Assembly (NCBI GenBank): GCA_018263655.1
Contig: JAANWY010000149.1
Location: 1 to 47,905, forward strand
DNA length: 47,905 nucleotides
Direction: 5' to 3'
Origin: Anaerolineales bacterium
GTDB lineage: Bacteria > Chloroflexota > Anaerolineae > Epilineales > JAANWY01
The position numbers and the translations under genes are program-made. Position 1 is the stretch's first letter; each line of letters opens with the position of its first letter. Under the pieces are notes generated by a model. It saw only the letters and a list, made by a program, of their open reading frames with translations, searched no databases and had not been told where the DNA came from. Shown piece after piece: positions 20,387-46,336 of this stretch.

Positions 20387-20435
20387 AGTCAGTGAACAGT
20401 GAACAGTCAACAGTGAACAGTCAACGACAAACAGT
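20387..20435. repeat. STRR-like heptamer tandem array ((G/C)AACAGT x ~7) directly upstream of trpD
   Basis: gtcagt gaacagt gaacagt caacagt gaacagt caacgac aaacagt. Confidence 0.8.
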
Positions 20436-20485
20436 GGTCGGCCTGAACAGTGCTTACCGTTCACTCAATGTCATCAAGTTGAGTC

Positions 20486-20620
20486 AGGTGACCGGCACGT
20501 AGTCAGTTTTGACTATCAGGATCGGTAATAGAGCGGGCAGGATTACCATGTTTGATAGTCAAAACTGATTACGGAAATCTGGCCGCGAATTGAGTCTGAA
20601 TTCACAAGTGCCGGTCACCT
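20486..20620. repeat. Nested palindromic element (aggtgaccggcac ... gtgccggtcacct)
   Basis: Outer 13-bp arms plus an inner hairpin gtcagttttgactatca / tgatagtcaaaactgat. Confidence 0.75.
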
Positions 20621-20628
20621 CAAACCTC

Positions 20629-20790
20629 TAGACTCGGTAAATCGCAGAGCCCGTTCGTAGTGAGCGCGGATGCGCACATCCGTCCGGAGCGCAGTGGAGT
20701 GCCGTCGTGGCGCCGCAGGACGCAGGGACGCCACTCCTGGCTTCGCCTCCGTGGCTGACTACGAACCTAGTTTGAGATTTACCGAGACTT
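20629..20790. repeat. Family-B element, copy B2
   Basis: Near-identical to 6913-7076. Confidence 0.85.
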
Positions 20791-20812
20791 AATGACATTG
20801 ACTGAACACTGA

Positions 20813-21385
20813 TCACTGTACACCGGTCGCTTCCAAAAAGTTTCTCAACAGTCGCCGGCCGCCCTCGGTCAGAATGGATTCTGGATGGAACTGGACGCCG
20901 AACATTGGGTAGTCGCGGTGGCGTAGTCCCATCACTTCCCCTTCGTCGGTGAAGGCGCTGACCATCAGTTCAGCCGGCAGCGGTTCTTCGACGATTAGGG
21001 AATGGTACCGCGTGGCCGTGAAGGGGTTCTTGAGGCCGGCGAACAACCCGGTGCCGTCGTGATAGATCGACGACGTCTTGCCATGCATGAGTCGGGGCGC
21101 ACGGCTTACCACACCGCCAAAAACGTGTCCCATACACTGGTGACCTAGACAGACGCCCAGAATCGGCACATCTTGGTGGAAGTGCTCGACAACGGCGTTG
21201 GAGATGCCACCGTCAGCCGGCGTGCCAGGGCCAGGCGAGATGAGGATATGGGTTGGCTCCAGGGCCTCGATTTCTTCCAGCGTGGTCTGGTCATTGCGTC
21301 GCACCACCACATCGGCACCCAATTCGCCGAGGTACTGGACCAGGTTGTATGTGAACGAGTCGTAGTTGTCGATTACGAGGATCAT
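20813..21385 (-). CDS. trpG: Anthranilate synthase component II (glutamine amidotransferase)
   Basis: [38 protein letters not shown] at 21385 preceded by AAGGAG. The longer track ORF runs over repeat DNA. Confidence 0.95.
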
Positions 21386-21498: not shown

Positions 21499-22503
21499 TC
21501 ACGAGTCAGGTATGATGAACCCGACATGCTCTTTGACACGCTTCAGCGTCGGTGTCGATCGCCGGCGTGCTTCTTCAGCGCCAGCTTCCAGTAATTTGTC
21601 GATGGTGGCCGGGTCTTCGGCCAGCTTGTTGTAGCGTTGCTGGATGGGGCGCAGCCCCTCGATGGCGGCCTCGGCTACTTCCGTTTTCAGATCGCCGTAG
21701 CCTTTGCCGGCGAAGTGGTCTTCGATTTCCTGGCTGCTCTGGCCGGTGAACACCTGGTAGATTGTCAGCAGGTTGTTGACGCCGGCCTTCTCTGGATCAG
21801 CGCTAAACACGATGTCGCGGCCCGAATCTGTGACCGCCCGCCGCACGGTGGCCCGAATGTCGTCTGGATCATCTAGCAATCCGATGCCGTGGTAGCGGGT
21901 GTCGGTGCTCTTGCTCATTTTGGACGTCGGATTGTCCAGGCCCATGATCCGCGCGCCGGCCTTGGCGATGAGTGCCTCGGGCAGCACGAACGTCTCGCTG
22001 TGCAGGTGGTTGAAGCGGCGGGCGATGTCGCGCGTCAGCTCCACATGCTGGCGTTGGTCTTCGCCGACTGGAACAAGGTCGGCGTCGTACAGCAGGATGT
22101 CGGCAGCCTGCAATACAGGGTAGTCTAGCAATCCTGTGCTGACGCTTTTCTGCTTCGCCGCTTTCTGCTTGTACTGCGTCATACGTTCCAGCCAGTTGAC
22201 GGGCGTTACACAGTTAAGGATCCAGGCTAGCTCAGCGTGGGCCGTGACGTGGGATTGGATGAAGAGCACGCTGCGGTCTGGGTCGATGCCGCATGCCAGC
22301 AACAGGCCGGCCAGTTTCCGCGTCTGGGTGCGCAGCTCCTCGGCGTCTTGTGGCACCGTGATCGCATGCAGATCTACGATGCAGAAGATGCTGTCGTAGG
22401 CGTCTTGGTTATCGACCCAGCGCTGTATTGCGCCGAGATAATTGCCGATGTGCAAGTTGCCCGATGGCTGGATGCCGGAGAATACGATTTTCTTATCGTT
22501 CAT
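21499..22503 (-). CDS. trpS: Tryptophan--tRNA ligase
   Basis: [17 protein letters not shown] (HIGH-type), [27 protein letters not shown]. Confidence 0.95.
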
Positions 22504-22540
22504 ATGTTGGTCACCTCTCTCATGTGTGTATGGTAACTAC

Positions 22541-22674
22541 TTTGACAATGTCACATTAACATAACAGTGACTCTTTGATCGCCGAAGGTCTCCTGACCGA
22601 GGCGAAATGGGCTCGGTCAGGAGACCTTCGGCCAACGTGGGGCGGCTATGTGACATTGTCAAGATAGTCACTGT
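22541..22674. repeat. Family-D element with a perfect 21-bp hairpin, between trpE and trpS
   Basis: gccgaaggtctcctgaccgag (22581-22601) / ctcggtcaggagaccttcggc (22612-22632), flanked by TGACAATGTCA-type small palindromes. Confidence 0.8.
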
Positions 22675-22683
22675 GTGTGTCTG

Positions 22684-24171
22684 TTATTCGAGTCCTCGTT
22701 CTGCGATTGTGATCGCTTCTGCCAGTGCAGCCGCTTTATTTACTGTTTCCTGATACTCGCGAGCTGGATCGCTGTCAGCGACGATGCCGGCGCCGGCCTG
22801 GATGTACGCCGTGTCGTCCTGCTTTAGGATGGTGCGGATCGTGATGCAGGTGTCCATGCTGCCGCCGTAGCCGAAGTAGCCGATAGCGCCGGCGTAGGGG
22901 CCACGACGCAGACCTTCTAGCTCTTCGATGATCTCCATGGCACGCACTTTGGGCGCCCCGGAGACAGTGCCGGCCGGGAATGTGACCCGCAGCAGATCAA
23001 AGGCACTGTGGTTCCCGTTGAGCCGGCCGCGCACGCTCGAGACGATGTGCATCACGTGTGAGTAGCGCTCGATCGTCATCAGTTCCGGAACCTCGACCGT
23101 GCCGTAGCCACACACTCGGCCCAGGTCATTGCGGCCCAGATCGACGAGCATGACGTGCTCAGCGCGTTCTTTCGGATCGGCGAGCAGCTCTTCAGCCAGG
23201 GCGGTGTCTTCTTCAGGCGTTGCGCCGCGCCGGCGGGTGCCGGCGATGGGGCGCACTTCGGCTATCCCGTGGTCGAGCCGTACCAGCATCTCTGGCGAGG
23301 AGGCGATGATGTCCAGGCCGCCGAGTTCCACGTATACCATGTAGGGCGAAGGATTCAGCATCCGCAGGGCGCGGTAGATGCTGAAGGAGTCGATTTCGGT
23401 CTGGCGGGCGAAGCGCTGCGACAGTACGACCTGGAAGATGTCGCCGGCAGCGATGTAGTCTTTGGCTTGACGTACGGCAGCTCCAAATACCTCTGGCGAC
23501 ATATTCGACTCGAGGTCGCGGGAGCGTGCTGCGTGCTGTGGGCTGCGTGGTGCGTGATGCGTAAGGGGTTGGCGCAATCGCTGAGTGATGTGGTCTATGC
23601 GATCGATGGCGTCGTCGTAGGCCGCGCGCGGGTCGCCCTCGGTGTGGGTCAGGGCGATGATGAGCAGCTTATGTTTGACGTGGTCGAAGACGACGAGCGT
23701 GTCGGTGAAGAGAAAGTCGCACAGGGGTAGACCGAGCCCCTGCTCCGCCGTGGCCGGCAGGCGCTCGAAGAAGCGGACGAGATCGTAGCTCATGTAACCC
23801 ACAGCGCCACCGACGAAGCGCGGCAAACCTGGCGTCTCGACTAGTTGATATTCATTCAATAGCGCCTCGACCACCGTCAGTGGGTCCTCGTCATCTGCCA
23901 ATGGCTGCGTTTTCGCAGAGCCGTTGTCGCGGATGACGACCCGATCACGATACCCCGTAAGCCGGCGCTGCGGAGCGGCAGCCAGGAACGAGTAACGTCC
24001 GACCTGCTCCCCGCGCTCGACGCTTTCCAGCAGAATGGCCGGCCCGTTGCCGCGCAGCTTCAGGAACACCGATACTGGCGTCTCCATGTCTGCCGGCAAT
24101 TCCTGGTAGATGGGAATCAGATTGCCTTGCTCAGTAAGCCCTTCAAATTCCTCGAAAGTTGGTTTGATCAT
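22684..24171 (-). CDS. trpE: Anthranilate synthase component I
   Basis: LLESVE, GDIFQVVLSQRF, NPSPYM, GTLSGAPK-like (GTVSGAPKVRAMEIIEELE), GAIGYF. ATG at 24171 with GAGGAGG upstream. Confidence 0.95.
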   Translation of the reverse strand: MIKPTFEEFEGLTEQGNLIPIYQELPADMETPVSVFLKLRGNGPAILLESVERGEQVGRYSFLAAAPQRRLTGYRDRVVIRDNGSAKTQPLADDEDPLTVVEALLNEYQLVETPGLPRFVGGAVGYMSYDLVRFFERLPATAEQGLGLPLCDFLFTDTLVVFDHVKHKLLIIALTHTEGDPRAAYDDAIDRIDHITQRLRQPLTHHAPRSPQHAARSRDLESNMSPEVFGAAVRQAKDYIAAGDIFQVVLSQRFARQTEIDSFSIYRALRMLNPSPYMVYVELGGLDIIASSPEMLVRLDHGIAEVRPIAGTRRRGATPEEDTALAEELLADPKERAEHVMLVDLGRNDLGRVCGYGTVEVPELMTIERYSHVMHIVSSVRGRLNGNHSAFDLLRVTFPAGTVSGAPKVRAMEIIEELEGLRRGPYAGAIGYFGYGGSMDTCITIRTILKQDDTAYIQAGAGIVADSDPAREYQETVNKAAALAEAITIAERGLE

Positions 24172-24227
24172 GTCTCGCCTCCTCGGCCGTTCAACGTCGA
24201 GCCGAATACGGTTATCCTGTCGTGAAC

Positions 24228-24288
24228 AAAAAACTCCCGCCCCTAGCAGGGACGGGAGGTGATGGCTTCCCGTGGTACCACCCTCGTT
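24228..24288 (-). promoter_or_regulatory. T-box sequence, antiterminator and intrinsic terminator immediately upstream of trpE
   Basis: Minus strand reads AACGAGGGUGGUACCACGGGAAGCCAUCACCUCCCGUCCCUGCUAGGGGCGGGAGUUUUUU. It contains the GGGUGGUACC T-box core, the antiterminator AGGG[UGGUACC]ACGGGA..UCCCGU-CCCU, and a competing 10-bp terminator stem plus U6. Confidence 0.85.
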
Positions 24289-24462
24289 AGACTGGCTCAC
24301 GTCTGGCTCACGTCTGGCTTACGTCTCGTAGTAACGGTGCTAAGGATTGAGAATTAGATAACTTCCCCAATTGAAGCCGAAATCTCAGGCAATTCAACGG
24401 CAAAATGGGCTTAATCCTTAGCCTTAATCGTTGTGACTGCGGTGAACGACTAAGATTATTAC

Positions 24463-24595
24463 GTAACCGTTCAGGTGGTGGGGACCCTTGCGAAGGTTTG
24501 CCAATCGCATTCAGGTTGAGGTGCCCCTCGCCAGTCGAAAATCGGTCTCTTGCCAAGGTGACTCTTAACCTTCGCAAGGGTGGCTGAACGCTTAC
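24463..24595 (+). mobile_element. Family-A element, copy A2, flanked by an 8-bp direct duplication (MITE-like)
   Basis: ATTATTAC at 24455-24462 and 24596-24603 flanks GTAACCGTTCAGG...GCTGAACGCTTAC. Lies inside the trp leader. Confidence 0.8.
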
Positions 24596-24625
24596 ATTAT
24601 TACTACGGCTCAGAGAGAACCAAAA

Positions 24626-24649
24626 AATCCCACGGTGAAACGCGGGATT
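24626..24649 (-). terminator. Terminator-like hairpin with a U-tract inside the trp leader region
   Basis: Minus strand AAUCCCGCG-UUUCAC-CGUGGGAUU followed by UUUUGG. Confidence 0.55.
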
Positions 24650-24777
24650 GGACGCTGTCAGCGCGTGATAAGGCCAGCCTCACTCGTTGCAGATACAGGA
24701 ACGGGAATCCATCACTGGATCAGTTAGTTCCGATATCCTCAGCCTTGATAACGGTGGCGACGCCGGCCCAGCATACT

Positions 24778-24841
24778 TAGTCGATTAGTCGGATAGTCAC
24801 TTAGTCGGGTAGTCATTTCGTCGAATGGTCGGATAGTTACA
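24778..24841. repeat. 8-mer tandem array (TAGTCNNN x8), opposed by an inverted GACTNNNN x4 array at 24947-24978
   Basis: tagtcgat tagtcgga tagtcact tagtcggg tagtcatt tcgtcgaa tggtcgga tagttaca. Confidence 0.75.
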
Positions 24842-24988
24842 CGTATATGGAGAGAACCCCACCACCGGACTAAGAGTCTATCCAAAAATCTGGTCTCGAT
24901 ACGGGCTATGCCCACTCGACCGACAGCTTTTGGACAGAGACAAAGAGACTACTTGACCAACTGACTATGGGACTAATCAACCGTTCAG

Positions 24989-25092
24989 CCGGCAACTCCC
25001 AGGCCCATTCACCCTCACCGTACGTATCGGCCTCGCACCTGCCGCCGACTCTCTGAGACGTCGTTGCGAGAGTTACTCTTCCTGTTCATAGT
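24989..25092 (-). promoter_or_regulatory. T-box Stem I with a tryptophan (UGG) specifier
   Basis: Minus strand AUGAACAGGAAGAGUAAC...CAGAGAGUCGGCGGCAGGUGCGAGG...GGUGAGGGUGAAUGGGCC. It shows the AGUA, CAGAGAG and GGUGCGA motifs and the specifier loop GAA-UGG-G (UGG = 25007-25005). Confidence 0.75.
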
Positions 25093-25118
25093 TGTTGCTG
25101 ATTTGAATTGTAATGGCT

Positions 25119-25147
25119 AGTATAGCACGAGATTGCAGACCTGTCAA
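25119..25147 (-). promoter_or_regulatory. Near-consensus sigma-70 promoter driving the T-box leader
   Basis: TTGACA (25147-25142), 17-nt spacer, TATACT (25124-25119). Confidence 0.65.
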
Positions 25148-25239
25148 ATGTGAGAGCGGAGCGTTAAGGGCTTGGGACGTCGCTCAGGATGCTCCCTGGG
25201 TTACCCCCTGAACGCTTACTGGGGGGACATGTAGGCCGG

Positions 25240-27207
25240 CTACTGATCCTCGGAGATCAAGAGCTTCTGTCCGGCCAGCAGAAAATCGGCCGATTCTAGC
25301 TGATTGATCTGGACCAACATCGCGACGTCCAGGCCGTGACGGTGCGCAATATCCGAAAGCGTATCCCCGGGGTGTATCTCGTACAAGTACGGTGGCATAT
25401 TGATCAACAGGGAGGTACCTGGATCAAGGGCTGTCGGGCGCGCGATATTGTTCAGCTTGGCGAGCCGGCCCACCGTCGTGCCAAAACGAGCCGCTATCGC
25501 GCCGAGCGTATCCCCCTCTTGGACGATGTAGACGTGTGGAGTGGTATCCGCCTGGTTGACTTGCCGGCCGTCGTTCGCTTGATCGATCTGCCCGCCGGCC
25601 TCCGGGTCGACGTCCATCTCATCGACTGGCCTGTCTGTCTTTGGCGTGTCAGAGGGCGTAACTCTGCTACCAATATCATCCCCTCGGGCAGCCAACTGGC
25701 GCTCGAACCTCAACTGCTCCTGAGAGAGACTCACCCAATCCTCGGTGACCGCCCGCAAATCGCCGATGTCACCGCTGATGACGGCTTTTTCGAGATCGAT
25801 CAGGAACTGCCGGCGGTGTTGGAGCACGCCCACGGCCGCCTCGAACACATCGCCGGTCTCTCCAACTTCATCGATCAAATCCAGCCCGCGCGATGTCTCG
25901 CTCAGCGCCTGATACACCTGATCGCTGATGTCCAGATCGACCGGTCTGCCCTCGGCCAGGGCCGCCATGACCTCGGCCATCACCGAGCGCAGAGCCGCGT
26001 CGTCGCGCACGATGCTGACGACGCTCAATTCCTGCTGCGTGTACGCCGGCGCGAAAACGCTGTTGCCCAGCTGCCGGTTGAAGACCAGCCGGCGCTCGCC
26101 CAGGTCGATCAACAACGGTGCGACAGTCTTCAGATCTGCGATGTCTTCGCTCAGGACGGCCGCCTCGACTGCCCGGAGTACGTCCAACTGAGTTCGCAGC
26201 AAGTCTTCGGCGGCCCGAAAAACGTCACCCGTGGCCCCCGTCTCGTACAGCAGGTCAAGCGCTCGCTCCGTGCGCCCTATGGCGCCGTAGATGGCGCTGT
26301 TGTCGTCCAGCGACAGACCCCGGTACTCGCTCAGCGCCTGCAGAATCAGATTGACGACCTCGGACATGTCGGCTTCGCGGACGATGGCGTCAATGGCGGT
26401 GGGGCCGTCACCGGCTTCAGGCGCCCGGGCAGTGACGCCCCCACCGTCTTGCGGCGCACCTGAGGCCGATCCGGCTGGCGCCGTCGGTGGATGGTCCAGC
26501 TCTGGTGTCGTGGTGGGCGCCGGTGTATCCGGTAGCGCGGAGACCTGGGCCGGCTCTGGAACGGGTATCGTAGCCAGAGCCGGAATCCCCCAGTTGCCGT
26601 CAGCGACGGTGAGCAGCATAGCGTCGTAGTCGCGCAGCCATTGCATGTGGATACGCAAGTGGGCGTATGTGGTTTCCGCCTCGCCCGTCTCCAGGGCTAT
26701 CTCGATATTTTCGCGAGCCCAGTCAGCCCCTACCGTCCAGCTTGGCACGGCCAGCTTCAGCAGTCCGAGGAGGTATGCCTCATTCTCGGTCAGTTCTGTG
26801 GAGACATCTGCGGATAGGTTGACGATCACGGAGGCACTCACGAGGTTCTCTGCTGGGCCAACTAATTGGATCACAGTTCGCCCATTTGGAGAGCGTCCAA
26901 GCAGCCTCGGCTCACCGCCGACCTCGGGAGATGTTTCAAAAGTGAAGCCGACCTCCGGCTTTTCAAACACAGACTGGATGCTGTCCCTTGCTCTCCCCAG
27001 GCCAACGATGTCTGCCTGGGCCGGCGGTAGAGCATCGGCTGGGTGAGAGGTGCGGATCGCCGATGTTGCTGAATCGGTCCCAACATCTGTCTGATTCGAG
27101 ATTGGCGGCTCCACGACGTGCGAGTCGAGCACACCCAAGATGTCGAGGAGCCCGAAGAGAACGAATGAGAGAAGCAATCCGCCCAGTAGAGCAATCACAC
27201 GTCGCAC
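25240..27207 (-). CDS. Membrane-anchored protein with two C-terminal LysM domains
   Basis: N-terminal TM. C-terminal YIVQEGDTLGAIAARFGTTVGRLAKLNNI and YEIHPGDTLSDIAHRHGLDVAMLVQINQL. Internal duplicated ~100-aa segment. Confidence 0.8.
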   Translation of the reverse strand: MRRVIALLGGLLLSFVLFGLLDILGVLDSHVVEPPISNQTDVGTDSATSAIRTSHPADALPPAQADIVGLGRARDSIQSVFEKPEVGFTFETSPEVGGEPRLLGRSPNGRTVIQLVGPAENLVSASVIVNLSADVSTELTENEAYLLGLLKLAVPSWTVGADWARENIEIALETGEAETTYAHLRIHMQWLRDYDAMLLTVADGNWGIPALATIPVPEPAQVSALPDTPAPTTTPELDHPPTAPAGSASGAPQDGGGVTARAPEAGDGPTAIDAIVREADMSEVVNLILQALSEYRGLSLDDNSAIYGAIGRTERALDLLYETGATGDVFRAAEDLLRTQLDVLRAVEAAVLSEDIADLKTVAPLLIDLGERRLVFNRQLGNSVFAPAYTQQELSVVSIVRDDAALRSVMAEVMAALAEGRPVDLDISDQVYQALSETSRGLDLIDEVGETGDVFEAAVGVLQHRRQFLIDLEKAVISGDIGDLRAVTEDWVSLSQEQLRFERQLAARGDDIGSRVTPSDTPKTDRPVDEMDVDPEAGGQIDQANDGRQVNQADTTPHVYIVQEGDTLGAIAARFGTTVGRLAKLNNIARPTALDPGTSLLINMPPYLYEIHPGDTLSDIAHRHGLDVAMLVQINQLESADFLLAGQKLLISEDQ

Positions 27208-39937: not shown

Positions 39938-40222
39938 GTAAGCGTTCAGCCGCCCTTGCGAAGGTTAGGAGGAGCCTTGGCAAATCGCAGAGCCCGTTCG
40001 TAGTGAGGCACGTAACGCAGTGGAGTGCCGTCGTGGTACCGCAGGGCACCGGGACACCACTCCGGCTTCGCCGTAACGCAGTGGAGTGCCGTCGTGGTAC
40101 CGTAGGGCACCGGGACACCACTCCGGCTTCGCCGTAACGCAGTGGAGTGCCGTCGTGGTACCGTAGGGCACCGGGACACCACTCCGGCTTCGCCTCCGTG
40201 GCTGACTACGAACCTATGCAAA
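39938..40222. repeat. Composite repeat: truncated family-A terminus fused to a family-B element containing 3 x 61-nt tandem units
   Basis: GTAAGCGTTCAGCCGCCCTTGCGAAGGTT at 39938-39966. 61-nt units start at 40011, 40072 and 40133 (cgtaacgcagtggagtgccgtcgtggtaccg.agggcaccgggacaccactccggcttcgc). Ends CTGACTACGAAC. Confidence 0.85.
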
Positions 40223-43256: not shown

Positions 43257-43270
43257 AAGACACCCCACTG

Positions 43271-43471
43271 CTCGCCGAGGTCTCCTGACCAAGGCGTATA
43301 CGGGCTCTTGTTATCACGCTCGCCGAAGGTCTCTTGACCAAGGCGTATACGGGCTCTTGTTATCACGCTCGCCGAAGGTCTCCTGACCAAGGCGTATACG
43401 GGCTCTTGTTATCACGCTCGCCGAGGTCTCCTGACCAAGGCGTATAGGGGCTCGGTCGGGAGACCTTCGCC
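43271..43471. repeat. Tandem array of 4 x 48-49 nt derived from the left arm of the family-D hairpin
   Basis: Units start at 43271, 43319, 43368 and 43417 (ctcgccga(a)ggtctcctgaccaaggcgtatacgggctcttgttatcacg). Only the last unit carries the complementary arm ctcggtcgggagacc. Confidence 0.85.
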
Positions 43472-46204: not shown

Positions 46205-46336
46205 GTAACCGTTCAGGTAGTGGGACCCTTGCGAAGGTTTGCCAAGCGCATTCGGGTTGAGGTGCCCCTCACCAGTCGAAAATCGGCCTCTTGCCACGGT
46301 TATTCTAAACCTTCGCAAGGGTAGCTGAACGCTTAC
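46205..46336 (+). repeat. Family-A element, copy A3
   Basis: GTAACCGTTCAGGTAGTGGGACCCTTGCGAAGGTT...AACCTTCGCAAGGGTAGCTGAACGCTTAC. Same orientation as A2. Confidence 0.85.

Follow-up and report, generated by a model that had tools for sequence, protein, structure and literature searches.

Analysis of a 47,905-nucleotide (nt) stretch of DNA from an Anaerolineales bacterium (contig JAANWY010000149.1, positions 1 to 47,905; this whole stretch is referred to here as the window) revealed an unusually long minus-strand leader ahead of the tryptophan biosynthesis gene trpE. We consider it likely, with a probability of about 0.7, that this leader is a single complete T-box transcription attenuator for tRNA-Trp that governs the trpE-trpS-trpGDC...FB operon. 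We hold its architecture to be very likely as follows: all conserved T-box parts are present once, in canonical order and unmutated, and the extra RNA lies in the tips of two helices. The order of the parts is promoter, Stem I with the specifier UGG, Stem II with its S-turn strands, the Stem IIA/B region with the F-box, the purine string GAGUG, Stem III, AA, the T-box bulge and antiterminator, and the terminator.

Relatives of two degrees of closeness were used for comparison. A search with TrpE of GTDB representative genomes and Joint Genome Institute (JGI) metagenomes gave relatives that are at most 64% identical and mostly Chloroflexota; these define the family and are too distant to delimit inserts. 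Insert boundaries were taken from relatives with 79-82% identical TrpE, obtained by protein-cluster search and contig look-ups (contigs L163/L164, L165/L166, L167 and L168). The window leader was aligned with four close relatives using MAFFT, and this alignment is called A2. The features of the leader, with the evidence by which each was placed, are as follows.

25147-25119, minus strand: promoter with TTGACA as -35 (25147-25142), a 17-nt spacer and an extended -10 of TG-n-TATACT (pattern scan, 11 of 12 matches plus the TG).
25098-24989, minus strand: T-box Stem I with the AUGA/GGAAG K-turn region, AGUA, CAGAGAG, GGUGCGAG and the specifier loop GAA-UGG-G (RF00230, Stem I profile).
24993-24981, minus strand: base of Stem II, with the 5' strand GCCGGCU (24993-24987), the S-turn GAAC (24986-24983) and GG (A2).
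24980-24779, minus strand: insert 1, about 190 nt net, in apical Stem II (found only in the window in A2).
24778-24766, minus strand: 3' side of Stem II, with AAGUA (24778-24774) and UGCUGGGC (24773-24766) (A2).
24765-24686, minus strand: Stem IIA/B region, with the F-box CCGUUA (24754-24749) and a clade-specific hairpin GGAUAUCGGAAC...GUUCCUGUAUCU (middle-module profile).
24685-24673, minus strand: purine string GAGUG (RRRxG, 24685-24681) and Stem III 5' strand AGGCUGGC (24680-24673) (homology, covariation).
24649-24622, minus strand: internal terminator-like hairpin AAUCCCGCG-UUUCAC-CGUGGGAUU with a six-U run (24627-24622), the first two U of which also close the stem (pattern scan).
24605-24304, minus strand: insert 2, which adds about 300 nt to the Stem III loop after the internal U-run and before the 3' strand of Stem III (columns 549-850 of A2, occupied by the window alone).
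24455-24603, unstranded: miniature inverted-repeat transposable element (MITE) of 133 bp (24463-24595) whose terminal inverted repeats are GTAACCGTTCAG/CTGAACGCTTAC, with a copy of the 8-bp direct repeat ATTATTAC on each side (24455-24462 and 24596-24603) (repeat search).
24324-24292, minus strand: tandem repeat of three 11-nt units, AGCCAGACGUG twice and then AGCCAGUCU (period 11, 3.2 copies, 95% matches).
24296-24287, minus strand: Stem III 3' strand GCCAGUCU (24296-24289) and AA (24288-24287) (pairing with AGGCUGGC).
24284-24248, minus strand: antiterminator, with A1 AGGG, the bulge UGGUACC (24280-24274), A2 helix ACGGGA...UCCCGU and A1' CCCU (second RF00230 match, core profile).
24258-24228, minus strand: terminator CUCCCGUCCCU-GCU-AGGGGCGGGAG (24258-24234; 11 pairs, 8 of them G-C) and U6 (24233-24228).
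24171-22684, minus strand: trpE, first gene of trpE-trpS-trpG-trpD-trpC-...-trpF-trpB (Pfam).

The original prediction had read the region as a Trp-specific T-box leader colonised by repeats, with a promoter and a Trp-specifying Stem I separated by some 700 nt from the T-box core, the antiterminator and a mutually exclusive terminator. All of these parts were recovered, and its readings of the specifier, the core, the antiterminator/terminator pair and the mobile element with its target-site duplication were correct. Scanning the minus strand with the Rfam T-box model RF00230 in E-value mode yielded two partial matches. The first (25098-24938, 70.5 bits, E 5.8e-15) spans the whole of Stem I with zero non-canonical pairs flagged, the 3' half of the model being deleted, and contains the specifier codon UGG (Trp) at 25007-25005 within GAA-UGG-G. 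Stem I has the features usual for the class, namely a K-turn region, an AG bulge, distal loop motifs and a specifier loop made of GAA, a codon and a purine. The second (24406-24245, 25.4 bits, E 0.0023) is convincing only where it covers the T-box sequence, the antiterminator and what immediately precedes them. Both halves thus score in E-value mode, though neither does at gathering stringency.

Profiles built from relatives gave the same picture. The Stem I profile (22 relatives) has a single match in the window, at 25097-24992 (E 3e-24), and the T-box core profile has its sole minus-strand match at 24291-24226 (E 9.7e-14); in the remainder of the 47.9 kb neither profile gave anything with E below 0.6, and no second Stem I was found by its profile or by RF00230 in E-value mode within 200 nt of 24290 or anywhere else in the window. 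The 7-nt UGGNACC bulge stands between helices A1 and A2 (AGGGUGGUACCACGGGA...CCCGUCCCU in the second RF00230 match), and the 5' arm of the terminator is the 3' half of the antiterminator, so the two structures are mutually exclusive. The bulge begins with UGGU in the window (24277) and in L165 and with UGGC in the remaining relatives' leaders inspected, and both fit a G73 discriminator. No tRNA genes were found in the window. At the upstream end, L165, L163 and L168 keep the same TTGACA...GUGCUAUACU ahead of the T-box, and a sigma-70-type scan of 24100-25300 found no second promoter-like site on either strand.

Comparison of leader lengths revealed that the spacing in the window is a true outlier. 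The distance from specifier to T-box is 728 nt, in agreement with the earlier estimate, versus 130-248 nt in 28 Chloroflexota trpE T-boxes; measured from GAAUGG to GGUGGNACC, it is 130-228 nt in 25 T-box-bearing relatives, and three closer relatives have 224-248 nt. The whole leader is 854 nt long versus about 350 nt. Among 20 Chloroflexota-type loci scanned, nine have a full T-box above the gathering score before trpE, with spans of 258-357 nt, and the four close relatives with the entire leader on the contig score 106.7-114.5 bits on RF00230. Since these insert-free leaders score so well, the inserts are taken to be the reason that the window misses a full-length score. In alignment A2 the conserved blocks are 76-97% identical and two blocks occur only in the window. 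Stem I of the window is 79-87% identical to that of the relatives, which are 80% identical among themselves, so the window Stem I is no more diverged than the relatives are from one another, a sign of continued use.

The original prediction had suggested that the two halves are joined by a very long linker of mobile DNA and that the block 24300-24985 might be absent from orthologous leaders. This is right for the two window-only blocks and wrong for what lies between them: the middle of the T-box is located within the supposed linker, and it is kept in the relatives. In the relatives the leader runs through Stem I, Stem II (xxGAAC...AGUAxx), CCGGAG-GCCACCGUUAUC (the F-box), a hairpin, GAGUGAGRCUGGC, a variable segment, GCCAGYCU-AA and the T-box. 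A profile hidden Markov model of the middle module, built from 11 relatives with the window excluded, matched the window once, at 24767-24621 (nhmmer E 8.9e-18, model positions 2-116 of 117). This segment holds the 3' strand of Stem II, the F-box and IIA/B region, the GAGUG purine string, the 5' strand of Stem III and a hairpin with a U-run.

Each helix of the middle module can be traced in the alignment. The 5' segment of the Stem II base is identical in L165 and L163 (GCCGGCUGAACGG/GCCGGCUGAACAGG in A2), and the equivalent positions in L168 are aligned as Stem II by RF00230. The 3' side aligns with AAGUAUGCCUGGC in L165 and AAGUAUGCCAGGC in L163, and the GCC:GGC and GC:GC pairings of the base are kept, as read from the sequence and the fold. 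The IIA/B region is 81-87% identical to that of close relatives. Stem II, the IIA/B region and the F-box are therefore assigned by homology across the 11 relatives, with GAAC/AAGUA and CCGUUA aligned with close relatives.

The assignment of Stem III rests on homology, pairing and covariation. The motif 5'-RRRxG-Stem III-AA-3' is conserved in T-boxes, where it stands directly ahead of the T-box sequence and forms one unit with the antiterminator (PMC7583486). The window has GAGUGAGGCUGGCC at 24685-24672, the counterpart of the relatives' GAGUGAGRCUGGC, and GAGUG followed by AGGCUGGC...GCCAGUCU and AA fits this discriminator motif exactly. The two strands can form eight of eight possible pairs, one of them G-U, across the loop that now contains insert 2. 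In relatives the 3' strand reads GCCGGCCU, GCCAGCCU or GCCAGUCU, and RF00230 aligns AGGCUGG...[70 nt]...CCAGCCU as Stem III in L168. Over 16 sequences and eight pairs, 85.6% of the cells are paired, compared with at most 43% when the partner is slid; the register of the 3' strand was chosen by hand for L075, L156 and L158, which favours pairing. Changes on both sides were seen in four of the eight pairs (A-U/G-C, G-C/C-G, G-C/A-U and C-G/U-A). RNAalifold on the MAFFT alignment of the middle module gave a poor consensus (-1.17 kcal/mol) with hairpins misaligned, and per-sequence folds with a fixed-register alignment of the arms were used instead. A role for GAGUG as the 3' strand of a IIA/B pseudoknot was considered and dropped, since RRRxG is the purine string of Stem III (PMC7583486). 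By every sequence-level criterion other than the full-length Rfam score, the window leader is a T-box.

The first insert enlarges the tip of Stem II. L165 and L168 have 13 nt of apical Stem II and L163 has 40 nt, compared with 204 nt in the window (24982-24779); the Stem II sequences GAACGG and AAGUA stand on either side of the insert. The insert is a foldback, formed by opposed tandem 8-mer arrays (24939-24981 versus 24780-24822) whose 43-nt arms are 77% complementary and extend Stem II directly past the S-turn strands. The minimum-free-energy fold of 24996-24758 (-104.3 kcal/mol, z -7.7) closes the base of Stem II. In the centre of the insert an interrupted hairpin is followed by AUUUUU (U5; 24921-24882). 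No target-site duplication was found for insert 1.

The second insert enlarges the loop of Stem III and is nested: the MITE sits within a structured insert that is older, measures about 160 nt and has hairpins at about 24339-24455. The stretch that separates the internal U-run from the Stem III 3' strand is 325 nt long in the window; in close relatives it is 19-23 nt, and over the full set of 15 hairpin-bearing relatives it ranges from 3 to 50 nt. In the minimum-free-energy fold of 24690-24286 (-150.6 kcal/mol, z -6.0) the outermost helix is AGGCUGGC:GCCAGUCU, formed across 376 nt. The last unit of the 3 x 11-nt tandem repeat supplies the 3' strand of Stem III. The MITE is short and non-coding, has terminal inverted repeats and a target-site duplication and occurs in multiple copies, as expected of its class. 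Further copies, 89-92% identical, lie at 46205-46336 and 476-365, with a partial copy at 39967-39937; the exact 8-bp direct repeat ATTATTAC flanks only the leader copy, the other two full copies having no target-site duplication. Its terminal 12-mer occurs 12 times in the window versus 0.15 expected. The repeats in the leader had mostly been described accurately beforehand: the opposed 8-mer arrays, the 133-bp element with its 8-bp target-site duplication, the 3 x 11-nt repeat and the extra hairpins (about 24345-24445) are all present. Of the two hairpins said to be followed by U-tracts, that at 24649-24626 passes terminator criteria and the interrupted one at 24882-24921 fails them.

Ends of this MITE are scattered through the window. 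The terminal repeat GTAA(G/C)CGTTCAG also occurs at 25208-25219, 365, 537, 662, 13720, 13969, 28648, 39938, 46205 and 46325, bounding elements of about 133, 137 and 261 bp as well as standing as solo ends, one of which is found 60 nt upstream of the T-box promoter. A 10-nt match to the terminal repeat is made by CUGAACGG, a native strand of Stem II, together with the first UU of insert 1. This 10-mer was considered as a sign of targeting and dropped, about 0.2 shared 10-mers being expected by chance (an estimate). A second CACCGUUA at about 24338 in insert 2 was likewise considered as a sign of duplication and dropped, about two shared 8-mers being expected by chance (also an estimate).

The genes downstream agree with the specifier. 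On the same strand the leader is followed by trpE, a class-I Trp/Tyr-type tRNA synthetase gene (trpS), trpG, trpD, trpC, trpF and trpB, and the Trp codon UGG thus matches the trp genes that it precedes. The tryptophanyl-tRNA synthetase gene (21499-22503) is located between trpE and trpG. It also directly follows trpE in the close-relative contigs L163/L164, L165/L166, L167 and L168, with the order trpE-trpS-trpG-trpD in L163 and trpE-trpS...trpD in L165. Judged from this gene order, one T-box would control both Trp synthesis and the charging of tRNA-Trp. The sigma-70-type scan found no promoter-like site on the minus strand before trpS, and since none was found elsewhere in the leader either, trpS appears to depend on read-through of the leader.

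If the enlarged switch works as its parts suggest, RNA polymerase would start at about 25112 and read through both inserts. The UGG codon plus the Stem II/IIA-B platform would read tRNA-Trp, the GCCA end of uncharged tRNA-Trp would pair with UGGU (24280-24277), and this pairing would stabilise the antiterminator at the expense of the terminator at 24258-24234. Polymerase would take about three times as long as in the relatives to get from specifier to T-box, so that control would be nearer to equilibrium than kinetic. Each insert folds on itself and the conserved basal strands can pair, and so the T-box core could be reconstituted across the inserts. We favour a leader that would still sense tRNA-Trp over an orphaned Stem I, both of which had been offered by the original prediction, and we put the chance that the enlarged switch retains its function at somewhat better than even.

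Several points weigh against a complete and working switch. Function is judged here from the integrity of the sequence alone. At gathering stringency (93 bits) RF00230 gave no match in the entire window, both partial matches falling below 93. The specifier-to-T-box distance is never above 248 nt in the 28 relatives. Transcription proceeds at 20-25 nt/s and tRNA dwells on Stem I of glyQS for roughly 4.5 s (PMC5951919); at this rate 728 nt take about 29-36 s, several times the glyQS dwell time. Polymerase must pass the hairpin and U-run at 24649-24622, and the weaker one at 24921-24882, before it reaches the T-box. The long-range closures of Stems II and III are thermodynamic predictions, and co-transcriptional folding could trap local structures instead. 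The exact 8-bp target duplication indicates that the MITE insertion is recent, and there may so far have been no time for selection to act on a switch that was damaged. The promoter scan covered sigma-70-type sites only.

A rival explanation is a disabled riboswitch. According to this explanation, which we regard as unlikely, the inserts or the terminator-shaped hairpins that they add or expose have broken the link of Stem I to the discriminator, leaving Stem I as a recent relic still to decay; transcripts from the 25147 promoter would mostly stop at 24622 (or at about 24880), and the operon would live on leaky read-through or on an unrecognised promoter. The intact target duplication of a recent MITE, a spacing beyond the range of the relatives, two hairpin and U-tract sites upstream of the T-box, the short tRNA dwell suggested by glyQS kinetics (PMC5951919) and the sub-gathering full-length score speak for it. 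However, the strongest internal terminator is old: insert-free relatives conserve it at 97%, and it occurs in 15 relatives with otherwise intact T-boxes. Neither in the leader nor ahead of trpS did the scans give an alternative promoter-like site. No mutation was seen in the basal helices, the purine string or any conserved box, and both inserts are apical and self-folding. Comparable foldbacks also occur in the trpE-trpS, trpG-trpD and trpB-trpF spacers of the trp operon, where the genes alongside are intact. A complete switch enlarged at two helix tips is therefore preferred to a disabled one.

The internal hairpin itself needs an explanation. At 24649-24626 it has nine pairs, five of them G-C, with a tail of TTTTGG and a predicted folding energy of -11.8 kcal/mol; a G+C-rich hairpin is followed by a run of six U, which is the shape of an intrinsic terminator as judged from the sequence pattern. 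Its block is the best conserved of the leader, 97% identical in four close relatives. An equivalent hairpin was found in 15 relatives (L165, L163, L168, L167, L083, L084, L088, L120, L123, L003, L040, L075, L069, L156 and L158), with energies of -10 to -18 kcal/mol, U4-U8, a position 25-46 nt past the Stem III 5' strand and stem sequences that differ by covarying. The T-boxes of these 15 loci are otherwise intact, 12 of them score above the Rfam gathering threshold, and they are spread over the TrpE tree. On this pattern of conservation the internal hairpin is inherited and does not belong to the mobile load.

Analysis of the hairpin-bearing leaders also revealed an invariant UGGC at the end of the Stem III 5' strand (24673-24677 in the window). 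It is present in 16 of 16 such leaders, even where its partner is mismatched, and the C12:G17 pair of Stem III is formed in only seven of 13 distinct rows. UGGC is complementary to a tRNA 3' end that reads GCCA. It is missing from 11 inspected T-box leaders that have no hairpin, two of which have UGGU there, and L004 and L005 have neither the hairpin nor UGGC though they group with the hairpin-bearing L084 and L003 in the TrpE tree. Scored for complementarity to GAGUGA, the conserved hairpin loops (UUCAC, UUUCAC or AUCAC) sum to 91, compared with a mean of 68.6 and a maximum of 81 for shuffled loops, a difference that is overstated because the sequences are related.

These features raise the question of whether a deep-branching set of Anaerolineae/Caldilineae trp T-boxes, that of the window among them, takes two decisions. 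[quoted passage not shown] The invariance of UGGC despite a mismatched partner, its absence along with the hairpin from other T-box leaders, L004 and L005 included, the 97% conservation of the hairpin block and a GAGUGA-loop complementarity above all shuffles would fit such a scheme. Nevertheless, the 16 sequences were searched by hand for a T-box-like antiterminator around UGGC, with an A1/A2 pair that would compete with the internal hairpin, and neither a conserved A2-like helix nor any other pairing in competition with the hairpin stem was found; only a short GUGA:UCAC complementarity recurs, the ACGCG:CGCGU of the window being lineage-specific. The T-box core profile has no match at the internal hairpin, GAGUG already has a role as the Stem III purine string (PMC7583486), and the relatedness of the sequences inflates both the invariance and the shuffle test. 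A pause would suit the position equally well (PMC5951919). We therefore hold it improbable that the leader is a two-checkpoint T-box, and only slightly less so that, across this deep-branching set, the hairpin is a true second decision point coupled to UGGC and/or GAGUGA that still works when shifted 300 nt downstream.

The internal hairpin with its U-run would most simply be a programmed pause or a leaky attenuation point. In Bacillus subtilis glyQS, RNA polymerase pauses at a U-stretch in the Stem III loop, at position 138 (PMC5951919, PMC13001445), and the pause reading is put forward because this is the nearest documented parallel. Literature searches for an internal terminator in T-box Stem III gave nothing specific, and no description of the hairpin together with UGGC was found in them.

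That the repeats were wrongly joined into the leader during assembly is very unlikely. The source is a contig of a metagenome-assembled genome (MAG), the leader region is rich in repeats, and Logan contigs break within the MITE. Yet independent Logan contigs, found in several sequencing runs, match exactly over 27544-24568, a range that includes the promoter and Stem I, insert 1 in full, the middle module and the left-hand junction of insert 2, and again over 24387-22616, where the T-box, trpE and the right-hand portion of insert 2 lie; only 24567-24388 is uncovered. Insert 1 lies inside Logan contig L169 (exact), and the outer junctions of insert 2 are covered by L169 and L001. Given these exact matches, insert 1 and both outer junctions of insert 2 are not errors of MAG assembly.

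A degenerate tandem T-box, in which the antiterminator of a first unit would remain at 24686-24620 ahead of a second unit that lacks its Stem I, is the least credible explanation of all, for although AACGAGUGAGGCUGGCC..ACGCG superficially resembles AACGAGGGUGGUACCACGGG, ACGCG could pair with the CGCGU of the 24649 hairpin as read from the sequence, and tandem T-boxes do occur before trpE in bacilli (PMC2494555), the three profiles find each module (Stem I, middle module and T-box core) once only in the 47.9 kb, the ACGCG:CGCGU pairing is missing in L163, L167 and L168, and the AACGAGUGAGGCUGGCC string, which the original prediction had taken for a weak second T-box, is found inside the single T-box of insert-free relatives, where it is the RRRxG purine string plus the 5' strand AGGCUGGC of Stem III and is so aligned in its L168 counterpart by RF00230. 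As a T-box sequence AACGAGUGAGGCUGGCC is ruled out by this identity, and the T-box core profile has no match there.

Foldbacks are a recurrent feature of the surrounding operon. Foldback inserts lie in transcribed spacers at 20380-20830, 22495-22690, 16140-16400 and 24779-24980, and several of them are closed by opposed tandem 7-8-mer arrays, such as CAGTGAA x5 versus ACTGAAC x3; one of 451 nt has a minimum free energy of -207 kcal/mol. Between the T-box terminator and the trpE ATG, L003, L084, L088 and L163 have the same foldback architecture built of unrelated units (GAGAUUG, GGAGUAA x16 and CGUGAAA). The foldback inserts look like a class of Anaerolineae elements that is defined by architecture and not by sequence. 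Near-perfect tandem repeats were also found at 40011-40194 (61 bp x3.0, 99% matches) and 43270-43453 (49 bp x3.8, 96%), and the 61-bp unit resembles sequence within the trpG-trpD foldback. Between trpC and trpF there is a 1.47-kb gap (17077-18547) with no long minus-strand open reading frame and with a plus-strand promoter-like site at 18496-18524.

Upstream of the T-box the close relatives have a unit of their own. About 100 nt before the T-box promoter they carry an extra promoter, TTGACA-17-TACACT (TAAACT in L168), followed by a conserved G+C-rich hairpin GGCGGGCAUGGCUGGUCGU...GCCGGUCGUGCCCGCC, at about 1680-1790 in L163, about 1945-2060 in L165, 1-110 in L166 and about 270-390 in L168. This unit may be a small RNA. 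The window does not have it, and a gene with a LysM domain is located there instead.

The leader provides a useful natural experiment and a lesson for annotation; it would represent a new mechanism only if the two-checkpoint reading holds. T-box riboswitches are usually described as kinetically tuned, the time from Stem I to the T-box matching the dwell time of the tRNA. In the window the spacing has been tripled by about 500 nt of repeat-derived RNA placed in helix tips only, and insert-free leaders are at hand as controls, so that it constitutes a natural test of the kinetic view. If the leader still responds to tRNA-Trp, the T-box core tolerates very large peripheral loads and long delays, and such tolerance would matter for models of co-transcriptional sensing and for T-box engineering. 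If it does not respond, it is a dated example of a mobile element that disables a riboswitch ahead of an operon with a tRNA synthetase gene. For annotation by covariance model it marks a limit, a complete T-box being missed at Rfam gathering stringency owing to inserts. A terminator-shaped hairpin and an invariant UGGC inside Stem III, moreover, are conserved across a deep set of Chloroflexota trp T-boxes. Were the two-checkpoint reading true, one decoding domain would serve two successive checkpoints, and the T-box could work near equilibrium and not kinetically.

In Chloroflexi, Trp T-boxes upstream of trpE were already known in 2008, for example in Dehalococcoides (PMC2494555). Like the window leader, the Chloroflexota Trp T-boxes have a UGG Stem I, Stem II, the IIA/B region with the F-box, RRRxG-Stem III-AA, the UGGNACC bulge, an antiterminator and an overlapping terminator, and they are located upstream of trp biosynthesis genes and trpS. 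The window differs from them in its 854-nt leader and 728-nt spacing, in having hundreds of repeat-derived nt within each of Stem II and Stem III, and in scoring 70.5 and 25.4 bits for its halves versus a gathering score of 93. Bacilli have tandem T-boxes before trpE or thrZ (PMC2494555). These share with the window an unusually long trpE leader and more than one terminator-shaped hairpin, but they repeat the whole unit of Stem I and antiterminator, whereas each module occurs once in the window.

Insertions occur in every T-box domain, and their function is listed as an open question (PMC7583486). In the case studied best, the staphylococcal glyS antiterminator has a stem, Sa, of 42 nt that is lineage-specific (PMC5622331, PMC9177973). 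Stem Sa resembles the window inserts in being extra RNA, peripheral on a conserved helix, with the T-box core intact. It is conserved in its genus and functionally engaged with tRNA, whereas the window inserts are about 190 and 300 nt long, are missing at 79-82% TrpE identity and include at least one mobile element with a target-site duplication. The glyQS pause resembles the internal hairpin site in that the Stem III loop contains a U-run that comes after the decoding domain but ahead of the T-box sequence; in the window and its relatives this U-run is preceded by an 8-12-bp G+C-rich hairpin, which by sequence gives the site the full shape of an intrinsic terminator. The mobile element is in most respects an ordinary bacterial MITE or palindromic intergenic repeat, with its 133 bp, terminal inverted repeats, 8-bp direct repeat, many copies, lack of coding capacity and strong self-folding; unlike typical ones, it landed in the loop of a riboswitch helix, and no partner transposase was identified for it. 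Compared with these systems, the inserts here are unusual in their size and in an origin that is double, nested and demonstrably mobile; unusual too are the existence of insert-free orthologous leaders as controls and a subfamily-specific Stem III hairpin accompanied by UGGC.

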